From the sequence record NC_028901.1: 43,900 nucleotides of DNA, one strand, 5' to 3'. Source of the DNA: Escherichia phage slur05. The position numbers and the translations under genes were made by a program. Below are positions 37,969 to 43,202 of this stretch, piece by piece (position 1 is the stretch's first letter; each line of letters starts with the position of its first letter). The notes below the pieces were generated by a model. That model was not told the DNA's origin. It made no database searches and saw only the letters and a program-made list of their open reading frames with translations.

Positions 37969-38147
37969 TGAAATTCTTCGTCCTGGCAACATGCCACAAA
38001 TTAGACGACCATTGCTCTTTTATTGTTGAAAACACCAACGAAAGCAATTGCTTTGCGGACGCACAAAATGAAGTTAAGCGCCGCGGCGAAAAAGCGGGCA
38101 AGGCTAATGTGAAATATGTAATTGTCCAGTTTACACGGGTGGAATAA
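37968..38147 (+). CDS. Hypothetical small Cys/His-containing protein (59 aa)
   Basis: ATG overlaps the upstream stop; stop overlaps the downstream ATG (TAATG); below the 60 aa cutoff of the supplied ORF track. Confidence 0.35.
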   Translation: MKFFVLATCHKLDDHCSFIVENTNESNCFADAQNEVKRRGEKAGKANVKYVIVQFTRVE

Positions 38148-39577
38148 TGGCGATTAAACCAAAACGTAAAACGCAATCCGGTAGCAACACGGAGCATTCA
38201 TTACTCGGCCCGTCCGGGTCTAAAAAATGGATGGGTTGCCCCGCCGCCCTGGTGGTGGAAAAAGATATCCCGAACGAATCCGGGCAAGCGGCGATTAACG
38301 GTACGAGTATGCACACCGTATCTGAAGTCGTGCTCAACCGCATCATTGCCGGTGAGAAGATGATAACCGCGAAGACGTACAAAGGGTGCTACGTCGAGAA
38401 TGAAGGCAAGGGGCCAGTAAAGGCGCACCCGAAAGCGCCGAAAGGCGGCGTACTGGTCAACGACGACATGGTGAAACAGTGCGATGCGTACATCGACCAC
38501 TGGCGACCGCTCCTCGAAGTGGCAGAGTTTGTCCAGCTTGAGATGCGCGCCGATCTGACCCGCGTCCTTCACTCAGACTACGAGATCGACGGCAACCGGG
38601 TTAAGACGTTCGGTACTGCAGATATGGTCATGGTCATGAAGAAGACCGACGGTACGTACATGCTGATTGTTGGCGACCTGAAGACTGGGTGGCATAAGGT
38701 CGAGGCGAAAGAAAACAAACAGCTTATGTTGTATGCGCTGGGCCTGCTGCGCAAGCTGAAAACCATGTACGACATTACGACCGTGCGCCTGGTTATCTTC
38801 CAGCCGTATTGCGGCGGGGCGTCGGAGTGGGATATTTCGGTAGAAGCCCTGGAGATATTCGCGAAGTTTGCGTCCAAGCGTGCTATCGCCGCCCTGGAAG
38901 CGTACGCCCGCGGCAAAAAGGGACTAACCCGTGCCGACTTCCGACCGAGCGTTGATGCGTGTCAGTGGTGCAGATTTGCGGATCAGTGTAGCGCCCGCGC
39001 TAAGGCTGCAATCGACACGATGACCCCACCAACGGCAACAGACGAAGACCTGGGCGACGACGTGAGTATTGCGACAGAGGAAGAATGCGCCAATCACGAC
39101 CGCAATATGGCCCGCGAAGCCCGCAAAGCGGCACGACGTGCTAAGCGTGGCAAGAAAGAAGCGGCCCCCGGCGCTATGACCGCCGCAGAACTGCGCAAGG
39201 CTTATGAAGGCCTGGACGCAATGCGCCAGCACATCAAAGCTATCGAGTCCGCGGTATTCAAAGCGGTAATGGCGGGCGATGGCGAATCGCTGGGCCTCAA
39301 GATGGTTGCCGGTAAGGAAGGGATCCGTAAGTGGGCGGACGAGAGCGAAGTTATTGAAATCTTCACGAAGGCCCGGATCAAGCGCGATGTGATGTACAAA
39401 GAAACATTGCTCAGCCCTACGGATGCCGAGAAGGTACTGAAGGACGAAAAACCGAAAGTGTGGGCGAAGCTGTGTGATAAAATCACGCGCGCACCTGCCA
39501 AACCGGTGTTAGCACCAATCGACGACCCGCGCCCTGCGTGGTCGGAAGCTACTGACGAGGACTTAAGCAATGAATAA
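38147..39577 (+). CDS. PD-(D/E)XK nuclease, DUF2800/Cas4-like
   Basis: N-terminal LLGPSGSKKWMGCP, nuclease core (GTADMVMV...GDLKTGWHKVEAKENKQLMLYALG), Cas4-like Cys cluster (CQWCRFADQC); charged C-terminal extension. Confidence 0.6.
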   Translation: MAIKPKRKTQSGSNTEHSLLGPSGSKKWMGCPAALVVEKDIPNESGQAAINGTSMHTVSEVVLNRIIAGEKMITAKTYKGCYVENEGKGPVKAHPKAPKGGVLVNDDMVKQCDAYIDHWRPLLEVAEFVQLEMRADLTRVLHSDYEIDGNRVKTFGTADMVMVMKKTDGTYMLIVGDLKTGWHKVEAKENKQLMLYALGLLRKLKTMYDITTVRLVIFQPYCGGASEWDISVEALEIFAKFASKRAIAALEAYARGKKGLTRADFRPSVDACQWCRFADQCSARAKAAIDTMTPPTATDEDLGDDVSIATEEECANHDRNMAREARKAARRAKRGKKEAAPGAMTAAELRKAYEGLDAMRQHIKAIESAVFKAVMAGDGESLGLKMVAGKEGIRKWADESEVIEIFTKARIKRDVMYKETLLSPTDAEKVLKDEKPKVWAKLCDKITRAPAKPVLAPIDDPRPAWSEATDEDLSNE

Positions 39578-39812
39578 AGTATTCGCAATCTTATTGATGT
39601 TTTTGCTCGGAGCGCTGGGCTTTATCCTGCATTGCGTGCAAGGCGTGTTAATGGTGGCGTGGATGATTCGGCATCCGACCCGCTGGCTGGATGACGGCTA
39701 TAGCGAAGTTGCCGTCGATTGGGTGGGGACGAACATCGACCGCCCGCCGTTAAGCTGGATCGAGAACGCTACCGACTACGTTACCAGAAATCTTTTTAAT
39801 GAAAATGCTTGA
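39570..39812 (+). CDS. Small membrane protein (80 aa)
   Basis: Hydrophobic N-terminus (VFAILLMFLLGALGFILHCVQGVLMVAWMI); overlaps the upstream stop. Confidence 0.4.
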   Translation: MNKVFAILLMFLLGALGFILHCVQGVLMVAWMIRHPTRWLDDGYSEVAVDWVGTNIDRPPLSWIENATDYVTRNLFNENA

Positions 39813-39837
39813 CCGCTTAGGCGCAACCAAGTAAATT
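39809..39837 (+). promoter_or_regulatory. Promoter-like element TTGACC-17-TAAATT upstream of the SSB gene
   Basis: -35 TTGACC 39809-39814, -10 TAAATT 39832-39837; GCAACCAA motifs in and after the spacer. Confidence 0.4.
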
Positions 39838-39902
39838 GGCAACCAAGCCGAACGGGGTGGCTTCCAATAACCCCGATGCATGTGAAAATGAGGAATTGGA
39901 AA

Positions 39903-40685
39903 ATGGCTAAAGTCAACCTGAAAAATGTGCGCGTATGCTTCCTGAAAATTTGGGAACGTGATACCCCTAAACAGGATGGACAAAAACCGGCATACCGTGC
40001 CGTGATTCTTCTGGATAAAGAAGATCCGCAGGTGGACAAAGTGGAAGCGGCAGCGCGCGCAGTGCTCACCGACAAGCTGAAATCCGAGAAGAATGCCGAT
40101 AAGTGGATGGACCGCCACTACGCCCAGGATTCTAAGGAATGCGCAGTGCGCGACGGCGACGAGCGCGATGAAGTAACCGAAGAATTCGAAGGCATGTTGT
40201 ATATCAACGCCAAATCGTTCAAACAACCAATCATTCAAACGTCACTCGGCGAGAAGCAGACTGAACAAGGTCTGACCATCGACGGCGACGAGATTGAAGG
40301 CCAGGAGATCTACTCCGGTTGTTATTGCAACGTGTCCCTTGATATTTGGGCGTGGAACAACACCAACGGCAAGGGACTCGGTGCTGGCTTGCTGGGTTTA
40401 CGCTTCCGTGATGACGGTGAAGCCTTCGGCGGTGGCGGGTCTTCATGCTCCGATGAAGACCTGGACAACGACGACGAAGACGAAGCACCGCGCAAGGCTA
40501 AGAAGTCAAAACGTCGTGATGACGATGATGAAGATGACAAGCCGCGCAAGTCCAAGAAATCCAAGCGCCGCGATGACGACGACGATGAGGAAGATGAAAA
40601 ACCTCGCAAACGTCGTAAGCCACGCGATGACGAAGATGAGGACGACGACGAAGACGAAGCACCACGCAAACGTCGCCGCCGTTAA
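39903..40685 (+). CDS. ssDNA-binding protein (DUF2815-like) with charged repeat tail
   Basis: GAGGA RBS; promoter TTGACC-17-TAAATT (39809-39837); partner of DUF2800 nucleases; C-terminus has DDDEDE/PRKxKKSKRR repeats; terminator 40704-40727. Confidence 0.5.
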   Translation: MAKVNLKNVRVCFLKIWERDTPKQDGQKPAYRAVILLDKEDPQVDKVEAAARAVLTDKLKSEKNADKWMDRHYAQDSKECAVRDGDERDEVTEEFEGMLYINAKSFKQPIIQTSLGEKQTEQGLTIDGDEIEGQEIYSGCYCNVSLDIWAWNNTNGKGLGAGLLGLRFRDDGEAFGGGGSSCSDEDLDNDDEDEAPRKAKKSKRRDDDDEDDKPRKSKKSKRRDDDDDEEDEKPRKRRKPRDDEDEDDDEDEAPRKRRRR

Positions 40686-40703
40686 GGGCAAAGCCCACTA
40701 TTC

Positions 40704-40727
40704 AAGCCCGCTTAATGCGGGCTTTTT
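40704..40727 (+). terminator. Rho-independent terminator after the SSB gene
   Basis: Stem AAGCCCGC/GCGGGCTT, loop TTAAT, then TTTTT. Confidence 0.65.
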
Positions 40728-40743
40728 AATAGGACAATGAAAA

Positions 40744-40914
40744 ATGCGTATTAAAGCCAGCGAAGTAAAAGTCGGGATGAAAGTATGGTCCAAGCTACTG
40801 GGGGAATATTTCACAGTTGCCGAGATTCGCAACAACGGCGAAGAGATCACCCTGTCAGACGGCATCTTCTCCATGATCGGCAGCGCTGACGCCGTAGTGA
40901 GGATAAAGCAATGA
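40744..40914 (+). CDS. Hypothetical small protein (56 aa)
   Basis: ORF whose stop overlaps the polymerase ATG (ATGA); below the ORF-track cutoff. Confidence 0.35.
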   Translation: MRIKASEVKVGMKVWSKLLGEYFTVAEIRNNGEEITLSDGIFSMIGSADAVVRIKQ

Positions 40915-43202
40915 AAGACTTCGAACGTCTGTTTCTCGACACCGAGACATTTAGCGGGGTGGACCTGAAGAAAGTGGGGGCGTACGCCTACGCAGAGCAC
41001 CCAACCACCGAGATTATGATTTGCACCTACGCCATCGACGAAGGCCGCGTGCAGACATGGGATTGCACTGAATCCCCCACAATGCCGCGTGAACTGCGCA
41101 AGGCGCTCCGCCATGTATCCCGCAAGAAAGCAAAAATAGTGATGGCTAACGGCCTCCTGTTTGACCGCCTGGTTATCCGCGAGAAGTGGGGCATCGACCT
41201 GCCGGTAAGCCAGATCGAAGACACCATGATTATGGCCTTTCGCCACGCGCTGCCCGGTAGCCTCGATATGCAGTGCCAGGTGCTGGGCGTTGACGCAGAG
41301 CACGCGAAAGATAAGGCAGGCAAGGCGCTGATTAAACGATTCTGTAAGCCCACCCCTAAGACCTACAAAATCCGCCGCTACACACGCGAGACGCACCCCG
41401 AAGAATGGGCCAAATTCTTGCGCTATGCCGCGCTGGATATTGTTGCCATGCGTGAAGTCTACTGGCGCATACCGGACTGGGGCAACTCACCGAAGGAAGA
41501 TGAAATCCTGCTCATCGACCAGTTGATTAACGACCGCGGCTTCTACGTTGACGTTGACCTGGCGAACGCCGCGATCAAAGCGGTACAGGCGCATAAGGAA
41601 GAATTGAAGGAAGAAGCCTGGGAGCGATTTGGCGGTAAGCTGACAGGCAATGACTTCCTGCCAATCCTGCGTGATATCGCCCCGGCGTTCACGATCCACA
41701 ACGCGCAAAAATCCACGCTTAACGACCTTCTTGAAGACCCGGACTTCCCCGACGAAGGCAAAGCGCTTATCGAAATGCGCCTCGGCGCGTCATCAACGGC
41801 ATCGACTAAATACAATCCGCTCGTTAATGGCCTGTCTGCCGATGGTCGCCGTCGTGGGTGTCTTCAGTACGGCGGCGCAAAGCGCACGCTACGCTGGGCC
41901 GGTAAAGGCTTCCAGCCGCAAAACCTGGCACGCGGCGAGTACAGCGACGACCACGAAGGGAAGATTAAGCGCCGCGAAGGCGAGAGCGACGTCGCTTTTT
42001 GGGTCCGGTCGCACATGCTCACCAACGGCATCAACTCCCTGTTACGCGGGACTGCACACTGGGCGTATGACATATCGAAGTTAACGGCCTCGACCGTTCG
42101 CGGGTGCATTATTCCGGCTAAGGGTAAGAAGTTTGTTGTAGCTGACTATTCTAACGTGGAAGGGCGTGGCCTCGCCTGGATCGCTGGTGAGAAAACCGCG
42201 CTAATGGTGTTTAGGGCCGGTCGCGATATTTATTGTGAAACTGCCGGTAAGATGTTCGGCCTTGACCCGGAATACATTAAAGCCAACCGCAAAGACCTAC
42301 GCCAGATTGGTAAGGCGTGTGAGTTGGGACTTGGCTATGGCGGCGGCGTGGCTGCGTTCTTGCAGTTCGCTAAAAACCTGGGCCTCGACCTTTACGCGAT
42401 GGCGGACGTCATGAAGGGCACATTCCCCGATCACATTTGGGCAGCGGCTAAACGGGGTTATGAGTACGCCCGCATTAACGAAGCGAAGCGACCGCCGAAG
42501 CCGGGCAAGAAGGACGAGCGCCCGACTTACATACTGCCTAAAAACGTTTGGCTGACCTGCGACGCGATCAAACGCATGTGGCGTGAGGCCCACCCGAAGA
42601 CGGTAGCCTTTTGGGCCGAGCTTGAGGACGCGGTGTTGTGTGCAATCCGCAATCCTGGCAAAGCGTACTGGGCTGGCGCGAACGTTCGCCCGGATGGTAA
42701 GAAAGCGCTCAAGATAGTCCGCACGAAGGCGAAGCATGACCCAACCTTCGACGAGGAACGCGACGACCCGAACGCCGCGGGGTGGTGGTTGAAAATTGAG
42801 TTGCCGTCGGGGCGTATTATGAGTTATCCGGGCATTGCGCTGTCTGTCACTACCGAGATCGACGAAGATACTGGCAAGAAACGCACCAGCACCCGCATTA
42901 AATATCAGGGCGAGAATCAGACGACCCGCCAGTGGGGCTTCCAGTACACCTACGGCGGCAAACTCACGGAAAACATCGTACAGGCGCTGTGTCGCGATAT
43001 CCTCGCATGGTCCATGCCTGGCGTTGAAGCTGCGGGATATGAGATCGTACTGTCCGTACACGATGAACTGATAACCGAAGTGCCGGATACTGACGACTAC
43101 ACAACCGAGGAGTTGTGCGCGCTGATGTGCGACCTGCCTGTTTGGGCGAAAGGCTTCCCGCTTGCCGCGGAAGGCGACATTATGTACAGGTACAGGAAGT
43201 AA
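40911..43202 (+). CDS. Family A DNA polymerase with N-terminal 3'-5' exonuclease domain
   Basis: Exo motif LFLDTETFS; polymerase motif A DYSNVEGRGLAWIAGE, motif B RQIGKACELGLGYGGG, motif C LSVHDEL. Confidence 0.85.
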   Translation: MKDFERLFLDTETFSGVDLKKVGAYAYAEHPTTEIMICTYAIDEGRVQTWDCTESPTMPRELRKALRHVSRKKAKIVMANGLLFDRLVIREKWGIDLPVSQIEDTMIMAFRHALPGSLDMQCQVLGVDAEHAKDKAGKALIKRFCKPTPKTYKIRRYTRETHPEEWAKFLRYAALDIVAMREVYWRIPDWGNSPKEDEILLIDQLINDRGFYVDVDLANAAIKAVQAHKEELKEEAWERFGGKLTGNDFLPILRDIAPAFTIHNAQKSTLNDLLEDPDFPDEGKALIEMRLGASSTASTKYNPLVNGLSADGRRRGCLQYGGAKRTLRWAGKGFQPQNLARGEYSDDHEGKIKRREGESDVAFWVRSHMLTNGINSLLRGTAHWAYDISKLTASTVRGCIIPAKGKKFVVADYSNVEGRGLAWIAGEKTALMVFRAGRDIYCETAGKMFGLDPEYIKANRKDLRQIGKACELGLGYGGGVAAFLQFAKNLGLDLYAMADVMKGTFPDHIWAAAKRGYEYARINEAKRPPKPGKKDERPTYILPKNVWLTCDAIKRMWREAHPKTVAFWAELEDAVLCAIRNPGKAYWAGANVRPDGKKALKIVRTKAKHDPTFDEERDDPNAAGWWLKIELPSGRIMSYPGIALSVTTEIDEDTGKKRTSTRIKYQGENQTTRQWGFQYTYGGKLTENIVQALCRDILAWSMPGVEAAGYEIVLSVHDELITEVPDTDDYTTEELCALMCDLPVWAKGFPLAAEGDIMYRYRK

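Follow-up and report, generated by a model that had tools for sequence, protein, structure and literature searches.

Proteins that bind ssDNA (SSBs) carry C-terminal tails that act as hubs, recruiting replication, recombination and repair proteins, and the accepted rule for such a tail is an acidic stretch closed by a hydrophobic tip. A 43,900-nucleotide stretch of DNA from Escherichia phage slur05 (NC_028901.1; referred to here as the window) holds a gene that raises a question about this rule. An earlier note on the window had described the product of positions 39903-40685 as an SSB-like protein whose last ~80 residues alternate between acidic and basic repeats. What kind of SSB is this, how far does its tail depart from those of its relatives, and what might a tail of this kind do?

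The gene and its OB-fold core

The gene is complete and lies on the plus strand, where 260 codons run from an ATG at 39903 to a TAA stop at 40683-40685. A ribosome-binding site (GAGGA, 39890-39894, plus strand) is located 8 nt ahead of the ATG, and the start, the ribosome-binding site and the stop together confirm the coordinates and reading frame that the earlier note had given. The open reading frame list, Pfam, PHROG and homologue searches all contributed to its assignment as an SSB gene of the Enc34/DUF2815, T7 gp2.5 type. Most annotated relatives start with the same residues, MAKVNLK. A longer open reading frame beginning at 39876 was discarded in favor of 39903 on the grounds of ribosome-binding site spacing and the annotations of most relatives. 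The records of some relatives place the start 15 nt upstream.

Signals were then sought on both flanks of the gene. A candidate sigma-70-like promoter (TTGACC, a 17-nt spacer and TAAATT; 9 of 12 matches) is present on the plus strand at 39809-39837, in a region where chance alone would be expected to produce one such site. Just past the stop codon, at 40704-40727 on the plus strand, lies a predicted intrinsic terminator hairpin, AAGCCCGC-UUAAU-GCGGGCUU, followed by a U run. Its folding energy of -24.8 kcal/mol (z = -4.8) was equaled by none of 200 shuffled sequences and, while the hairpin was absent from the output of a simple consensus scan, a terminator has been annotated at the homologous site in phage WFI. 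Because of the promoter-like site, the strong hairpin and the U run, the SSB gene appears to form a unit that has a promoter and a terminator to itself, the promoter having the standing of a candidate.

The same stretch of DNA is open in other frames. A 148-codon open reading frame in the +1 frame (40294-40740) and long antisense open reading frames across the tail were considered as signs of programmed frameshifting or dual coding, and both explanations were discarded. The +1 frame over the tail cannot hold a stop codon because T never occurs as the second base of a tail codon, and its openness is, as judged from the codons, a by-product of composition. The sporadic occurrence of frameshifted SSB records in the databases was one further ground for discarding programmed frameshifting.

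The SSB gene sits in the replication module already known from its family. The gene order is a DUF2800 PD-(D/E)XK exonuclease (38147-39577), an open reading frame of 80 amino acids (39570-39812), the SSB gene, an open reading frame of 56 amino acids and a family A DNA polymerase (40911-43202), and the succession of DUF2800 nuclease, SSB and family A polymerase was found in the window and in relatives. At the nucleotide level the gene is 99.9% identical to that of Escherichia phage slur06. It was matched by 153 phage records, and every one whose taxonomy was read belongs to the genus Dhillonvirus; SECphi4, SECphi18 and the BASEL phages JohannBuxtorf_Bas84 and Haito_Bas83 are among the matches.

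The encoded protein matched PF10991 (Enc34_ssDNA-bd, formerly DUF2815) over residues 3-193, scoring 109 bits where the cutoff is 26. This was the sole Pfam family found at E <= 0.01, and no match to PF00436 was obtained. PHROG 112, 'Gp2.5-like ssDNA binding and annealing protein', was matched at 6e-55, and the nearest solved relatives by sequence were 4KLK, 4JG2 and Enc34 ORF6 (5ODJ). A model prepared with AlphaFold2 from 59 homologues showed pLDDT values of 94-98 over residues 1-175 (39903-40427, plus strand), which form the predicted OB-fold ssDNA-binding core. A Foldseek search with the model core returned 4klk (2.7e-13), the Enc34 SSB-ssDNA complex 5odl (8.5e-13, with a TM score of 0.73 on the target) and T7 gp2.5 (1je5; 1.2e-6). 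The TM score on target was 0.73-0.76 for the 4klk and 5odl matches, which places the core among modified OB folds, and bacterial-type SSBs (1qvc, 3ull and others) gave E values above 0.4. Beyond the core lies a Gly/Ser hinge, GGGGSSC (residues 176-182; 40428-40448, plus strand), with pLDDT below 50 at residues 178-180; its GGGG is the family consensus.

The DNA contacts known from the Enc34 complex were compared by pairwise HMMER alignment, which at 22% identity is uncertain. In this alignment the Enc34 residues W150, N154, R112 and Y30 correspond to W149, N153, K104 and F13, and the contacts Y156, Y37 and K46 fall on the unlike residues N155, T21 and A30. W151, W17 and K28 are found within two to four positions of these unmatched contacts. 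Taken together, the profile matches and the model indicate that the product of 39903-40685 is an Enc34/T7-type SSB of an Escherichia Dhillonvirus, for which ssDNA binding is predicted. The wording 'SSB-like' was therefore well chosen, given the PF10991 and PHROG 112 matches, the agreement of the AlphaFold2 core with Enc34 ORF6, 4klk and T7 gp2.5, and a near-identical protein already published from SECphi4 and SECphi18.

Stokar-Avihail and colleagues described this SECphi4/SECphi18 protein (QJI52528.1) as a predicted SSB of the Gp2.5 family whose expression suffices to activate Retron-Eco8. SECphi4 mutants that escape Retron-Eco8 carried either T56P, in a helix of the core, or an intergenic mutation upstream of the SSB gene, and T56 likewise falls within the OB core of the window protein. 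The published structural figure is limited to residues 1-186 ('flexible C-terminal residues not displayed'), and the tail was left unanalyzed. A later paper cites the SECphi4 SSB as a binder of retron msDNA. These proteins are products of the same Dhillonvirus gene as the window protein, with a nucleotide match of 95-96% and the same tail grammar. They differ in unit number (three in SECphi4 and four in SECphi18), and no difference in kind from the window protein was found.

Charge pattern and unit number of the tail

The tail comprises the last 78 residues (183-260; 40449-40682), in good agreement with the ~80 noted earlier, and is built from four units, each an acidic block, an x-Pro-Arg/Lys boundary and a basic block. 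All four are encoded on the plus strand. Unit 1 (40449-40517), delimited by sequence and charge analysis, consists of SDEDLDNDDEDE and APRKAKKSKRR. Units 2 and 3, delimited by repeats and charge analysis, are 54 nt each and consist of DDDDEDD and KPRKSKKSKRR (40518-40571) and of DDDDDEEDE and KPRKRRKPR (40572-40625), respectively. The terminal unit 4 (40626-40682), read from the sequence, consists of DDEDEDDDEDE and APRKRRRR, the final arginine being the C terminus, and this arginine tip stands where the canonical acidic/hydrophobic tip would be. At the tail's opposite end, the acidic block SDEDLDNDDEDE aligns with the canonical acidic tail of the family and its D-x-F/L-x-D-L motif; the family consensus at the tail start is xxDxFxDLxDD and the Pfam model reaches residue 193.

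The tail contains 36 D/E and 28 K/R residues, giving a charged fraction of 0.82 and a net charge per residue of -0.10. The distribution of these charges was compared with that in shuffled sequences. A Das-Pappu-type kappa of ~0.54 was obtained, with a delta z of 9.9 against shuffles, and the sign of the charge switches 7 times along the tail. Shuffled sequences gave 31.5 +/- 3.9 switches, and all 5000 of them had more than the tail. Autocorrelation of the charge is strongest at a lag of 18 residues. The charge segregation of the tail is thus non-random. In the AlphaFold2 model the tail has pLDDT values of 49-68 and is essentially coil, with a single four-residue helix at 184-187, and is predicted to be intrinsically disordered. 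High charged fraction, near-neutral net charge, segregation and predicted disorder are the marks of a blocky polyampholyte, or mixed-charge disordered region, a term that denotes a physical class and not a homology family.

The earlier note had also seen the protein repeats mirrored as tandem repeats in the DNA. This held for direct repeats with a period of 54 nt, which were detected by ungapped seed extension and proved to be degenerate (60-82% identity): units 1 and 2 are 74% identical over 54 nt, and units 1 and 4 are 82% identical over 45 nt. It did not hold for a unit-length tandem array, which TRF, run on the window with scores down to 30, did not find; the periodicity recovered was that of codons, at 3, 6 and 9 nt. 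A 28-nt direct repeat is also present on the plus strand, with a left copy at 40468-40495 and a right copy at 40642-40669 that agree at 27 of 28 positions.

The SSB gene was next compared in 22 in-frame Dhillonvirus sequences, the window included. Most have four units (256-265 amino acids), and about 47 of 60 evenly spaced GenBank records span the 771-798 nt of the four-unit length. Three units are found in HK578, JL1, SECphi4, BF9, GeorgBuechner, an EK99P-1-like sequence, Envy and others, and two in one EP23-like contig. A single unit is present in phage welsh, whose SSB of 202 amino acids ends ...SDEDLDNDDEDEAPRKRRRR and whose core has a dS of only 0.017 from that of the window. The allele of welsh matches an in-frame deletion of 174 nt between the two copies of the 28-nt repeat, and that of JL1 matches the loss of 54 nt between repeats of 11 nt. 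All differences in unit number among these phages are in frame and in register. Unit number is therefore polymorphic, from one to four, through in-register deletions at direct repeats.

Unit 2 is gone from some viable isolates and unit 3 from JL1, SECphi4, BF9 and welsh, while unit 1, including the first acidic block, is kept in 22 of 22 in-frame sequences. The terminal x-PRKRRRR is likewise present in all 22, as APRKRRRR in 21 and as KPRKRRRR in SECphi4. Because isolates carry one, two, three or four units, the internal units are dispensable for plaque formation. On the evidence of these genomes the repeat array as such is dispensable in this sense, and the minimal acidic-plus-arginine unit was not seen to be lost in the in-frame records. 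The earlier note had taken a tail that is dispensable and highly variable, or absent, in close relatives as counting against its reading. This applies by half, since unit number is highly variable among close relatives but the minimal unit is retained in all 22 in-frame sequences. Three database entries (L023, P0005 and P0008) are frameshifted, with the distal tail replaced; were these frameshifts real and not sequencing errors, the arginine tip too would be dispensable.

Substitution rates were estimated by the NG86 method over 231 pairs. The tail has a dN/dS of 0.108 at a dS of 0.53, and the core 0.046 at a dS of 0.39, showing that purifying selection acts on tail residues. LM40P1, the most divergent Dhillonvirus (core dS ~0.9), shares the four units and their order with the window.

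Tails of the wider family and of other SSBs

To place the tail within its family, a census was made with the core only (residues 1-183), for which HMMER was run, with no word index, on 1.84 billion cluster representatives. A first homologue set, in which many proteins showed the same alternation of charge, had been preselected by shared 5-residue words, which favors query-like tails, and it was excluded from the frequencies. A protein search with only the tail as query gave no matches, probably owing to the compositional bias filter of HMMER. In the 148 full-length relatives that the census yielded, the tail has a median length of 23 amino acids. Acid-only tails were found in 133 of the 148 (median 0 K/R), with a hydrophobic residue among the last three positions in 129 of these 133, and the remaining 15 (10%) have mixed-charge tails. 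Set against this family habit of a short, purely acidic tail with a hydrophobic end, the window protein has 78 residues, 28 K/R and an RRRR end. Its departure from the PF10991 norm is confined to the tail, and the family-defining domain is unaffected. The earlier description of a zwitterionic tail as atypical for an SSB is upheld by the same counts, and the mixed-charge tail is a recurrent minority variant in about 10% of the family, not a singleton.

A neighbor-joining tree of 250 cores contained about 15 clades in which all tails are mixed, and parsimony required at least 14 changes, although at ~30% identity such a tree gives a rough count of independent origins. The window protein belongs to a 69-member clade, 55 of whose members have a basic end. 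Within the Guernseyvirinae-type relatives, the SSBs of Jerseyvirus and Kagunavirus (cores ~37-40% identical) have a single unit and end ...DDLEDDEDETPRRERRRNR and ...NDLEDDEEEDEAPRRERRRR, that is, with ...TPRRERRRNR and ...APRRERRRR, respectively, and that of Klebsiella phage VLCpiS11a (Guernseyvirinae) has three units. Members of other clades have four to nine basic blocks yet retain a classical tip (...DDDVA, ...DDDDLPF or ...DDDDY). Two of these relatives occupy the same DUF2800-SSB-PolA module on contigs of 43-52 kb, and their tails are encoded by true DNA tandem repeats (54/114 nt at 78-83% matches; 45/87/177 nt at 87%). The pattern of repeats indicates that tail amplification has been lineage-specific.

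The boundaries between blocks were also compared. Proline occupies exactly the second position after the last acidic residue at 339 of 405 acid-to-basic boundaries, a figure (84%, against 6.3% Pro overall) that is inflated by the biased, word-preselected sample. In the unbiased mixed tails, inspected by eye, proline lies within three residues of the boundary in 13 of 15.

Several characterized proteins share part of this architecture. The closest is the Enc34 ORF6 SSB from an Enterobacter/Hafnia phage (5ODJ, 5ODK and 5ODL), which belongs to the same PF10991 family and has the same fold, with several DNA-contact residues tentatively aligned and a Gly hinge, after which an unstructured tail begins with acidic residues; overall identity is only ~21-22%. 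The Enc34 tail is short and acidic, with D/E at 16 of the last 29 residues and an end, ...WDEDEV, known from a cloning primer, whereas that of the window protein is 78 residues long with four basic blocks. Enc34 SSB without its acidic tail binds dsDNA, and the acidic tail is given as the family norm (PMC5686142).

T7 gp2.5 resembles the window SSB in its OB-fold type (1JE5), its disordered C-terminal tail, its ability to trigger Retron-Eco8 and its role as a replisome SSB, at an identity of only 12-13%. However, its tail is 26 residues long (207-232), acidic and ends in Phe (...EADEDGDF), in contrast to the Dhillonvirus tail with its 28 K/R, the C terminus APRKRRRR and no terminal aromatic residue. 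Both the terminal Phe and the acidity of gp2.5 are required for binding T7 DNA polymerase and helicase. E. coli-type SSBs (PF00436) resemble it in general plan, with an OB core that leads through a disordered linker or tail to a terminal tip, but have no sequence homology to the window SSB, which lacks the PF00436 profile, the bacterial-type fold and a tip of the DDDIPF type. The E. coli-type linker is rich in Gly, Gln and Pro and is not charged. Some distant mixed-tail DUF2815 proteins end ...DDDDLPF or ...DDEIPF.

Further afield the likeness is one of analogy. T4 gp32 has a basic N-terminal LAST motif and an acidic C-terminal domain, which are located one at each end of the protein and are unrepeated. 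Eukaryotic acidic/basic blocks occur in nucleolin and Nopp140 N termini and in mixed-charge domains. None of these has homology to the window tail. Such analogues show a blocky charge pattern and pair Lys/Arg/Ser-rich peptides, associated with cooperativity or nucleic-acid contact, with acidic segments associated with autoinhibition or partner binding. Literature searches on polyampholyte or mixed-charge SSB tails found nothing, and the tail is undiscussed in the Enc34, Retron-Eco8 and escape-mutant papers. The tail variant is thus apparently undescribed; the identity of the protein as an SSB and its role as the Retron-Eco8 trigger were already known.

Possible roles of the tail

The protein is probably a replication and recombination SSB that combines an OB core with a disordered, amplified acidic/basic tail that may act electrostatically. 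The structural and evolutionary description contained in this reading is held with high confidence. The functional part is tentative, being somewhat less likely to be right than wrong, and its mechanism was drawn from the precedents of T7 gp2.5 and Enc34 and from the physics of blocky polyampholytes.

As to origin, the acidic tail of the family, still seen as the first block (SDEDL..DDEDE), has gained an Arg/Lys block past an x-Pro boundary, and unequal recombination or slippage on the repeats of its coding DNA has then multiplied the resulting acidic-plus-basic unit into four tandem copies. In the proposed mechanism, the acidic blocks may mimic DNA, occupying and gating the basic OB cleft in the manner of T7 gp2.5 and Enc34 ORF6, and such gating, which in those two proteins has been shown to keep the SSB specific for ssDNA and displaceable, would do the same here. 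The basic blocks might pair with acidic blocks, either within one molecule or between neighbors, and possibly with the DNA backbone. Block pairing of this kind would generate multivalent, salt-sensitive contacts between SSBs and between SSB and replisome, which could support cooperative coating, annealing together with the adjacent DUF2800 exonuclease and, possibly, condensates. Unit number would set the valency, and the Arg-rich tip would take over the terminal docking role of the acidic/aromatic tip. The earlier suggestion of partner recruitment or phase separation is compatible with a tail sequence that is predicted to be disordered, is blocky and is under purifying selection. Any gain from extra units would be quantitative at best, since isolates with one to three units are viable.

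A more specific form of this mechanism can be framed for the Dhillonvirus/Guernseyvirinae-type sub-lineage, in which the Arg tip, in place of the near-universal acidic/hydrophobic one, and the copy-number-variable array of [acidic]-x-Pro-[basic] blocks would constitute an electrostatic zipper. The x-Pro boundary would be a true short linear motif and not just a reflection of composition. Blocks of neighboring SSBs, or of SSB and replisome, would pair head to tail and so lead to tunable cooperativity or to condensates on ssDNA. This specific form is considered distinctly unlikely.

The variation among isolates bears on a simpler account, in which the array is a tolerated low-complexity expansion. 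Here only the terminal minimal unit would be functional, and the internal units would be near-neutral by-products of slippage or unequal recombination on GA-rich repeats, serving at most as a spacer. Such an account is consistent with the occurrence of one to four units among plaque-forming isolates with near-identical cores (the core dS of welsh being 0.017), with deletions that fall at direct repeats and with the single unit of Guernseyvirinae relatives; moreover, the internal units, at +1 and -2, carry little net charge, so that their gain or loss hardly shifts the net charge. It does not sit easily with a tail dN/dS of 0.11 despite a dS of ~0.5, with the retention of the four-unit order in the most divergent member of the genus or with the predominance of the four-unit length among sampled GenBank records (~47 of 60), and tails of several units are found repeatedly, in many lineages, with DNA repeats particular to each of them. 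On balance, a tolerated expansion is judged unlikely.

Two further explanations assign the tail a single dominant activity. Blocky polyampholytes readily phase-separate, and E. coli SSB condenses via its disordered linker. The window SSB, an abundant protein, might self-coacervate, with or without ssDNA, into condensates that organize replication factories, unit number tuning the saturation concentration, and the high charged fraction, high kappa, multivalent blocks and predicted disorder of the tail would all suit such behavior. However, one-unit relatives and one-unit genera replicate well, and the ~90% of the family with short acidic tails do without it. Self-coacervation is judged very unlikely. 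Alternatively, the basic blocks could chiefly bind nucleic acid, as do SPKK motifs, AT-hooks and the LAST motif of T4 gp32, and speed annealing by neutralizing the charge of the backbone, making the SSB mainly an annealase partner of the DUF2800 exonuclease. The K/R/S/P-rich composition of the blocks, the PHROG 112 annotation as a Gp2.5-like SSB and annealing protein, and the PD-(D/E)XK exonuclease upstream, separated from the SSB gene by nothing but the 80-amino acid open reading frame (39570-39812), point in this direction, and distant relatives have a similar arrangement. Yet beside every basic block stands a larger acidic one, which would be a competitor of the DNA, and members without basic blocks share the exonuclease-SSB module (genomic context having been checked in mixed-tail members only). 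This explanation is regarded as extremely unlikely. The preferred reading remains that of an SSB whose amplified tail may act electrostatically.

For the biology of these phages, the finding means that a large and well-sampled coliphage group, which includes BASEL phages and the SECphi phages of defense studies, regularly breaks the SSB tail rule. The practical consequences are modest, as the identity of the gene and its role as the Retron-Eco8 trigger are known and the trigger lies in the core and not in the tail. The natural alleles with one to four units on near-isogenic backgrounds make tail valency, charge patterning and cooperativity or condensation directly testable. If the electrostatic zipper were true, it would represent a second, previously unrecognized way in which SSB tails recruit their partners.

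Proline at the acid-to-basic boundaries of the tail

The mixed-charge tail of the SSB (residues 183-260) carries the pattern [DE]3-x-P-[RK] at window positions 40485-40493, 40539-40547, 40599-40607 and 40659-40667. Across the tails of the SSB-family proteins P0001-P0268, which span many clades, 84% of the acid-to-basic boundaries (339 of 405) placed proline exactly at +2 from the last acidic residue, a figure inflated by pre-selection of the set for tails like the query's. Proline was rare at the basic-to-acid boundaries of these tails. Proline at the acid-to-basic boundary looks like a motif rather than a matter of composition alone.

Two family members with very long tails, P0180 (360 aa) and P0208 (272 aa), follow a grammar unlike the x-Pro units, and the proline boundary is absent from both tails. 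The P0180 tail has Arg-Asp dipeptide-like repeats (DRGRDRRDDRGG..., 166 aa), and that of P0208 carries repeats of D5-RGSRSRSR; both are similar to eukaryotic RD/RS mixed-charge domains.

Neighboring genes

The DUF2800 exonuclease (window 38147-39577, + strand) contains a charged low-complexity insert at about residues 300-345 (...DEDLGDDVSIATEEECANHDRNMAREARKAARRAKRGKKEAAPG...), in which an acidic stretch is followed by a basic one, a loose echo of the SSB tail. The final 8 nt of the exonuclease gene are overlapped by the start of a small, conserved 80-aa ORF (39570-39812, + strand; PHROG 11211, E 5e-52). The product of this ORF has a hydrophobic stretch, MNKVFAILLMFLLGALGFILHCVQGVLMVAWMI, at its N-terminal end that looks membrane-spanning, which is odd for a replication module.

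Between SSB and the polymerase lies a 56-aa ORF (40744-40914, + strand), also encoding a small, conserved protein (PHROG 10102, E 1e-42). Table S2 of Stokar-Avihail et al. lists defence-escape mutants with frameshift and point mutations in the SECphi4/SECphi6 homologue of this ORF, together with escape mutations upstream of it, and the trigger tests in that study included cloning of the homologue.

Reading frame and repeats of the tail-coding DNA

Every codon of the tail has a base other than T in second place, so that stop codons cannot occur there in the +1 frame (counted from the SSB gene); an ORF in this frame covers 40294-40740. Three database versions of SSB, L023 (vB_EcoS-101114B2), P0005 (vB_EcoS-22664B1) and P0008, shift into the +1 frame within the tail, bypass the usual stop, continue into the terminator and share the C terminus ...VKGKAHYSSPL(I/N)AGFL(L/I)GQ. 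These frameshifts may be true alleles, or they may be errors of sequencing, the stretch being of low complexity.

In two contigs of distant mixed-tail homologues, the tail-coding DNA (L027 6561-6815; L028 5680-6060) forms higher-order tandem repeats, with periods of 54/114 and 45/87/177 nt, respectively, and matches of up to 87%. These repeats are far better preserved than those of the SSB tail in the window, which implies that amplification in the two lineages is recent or still under way.
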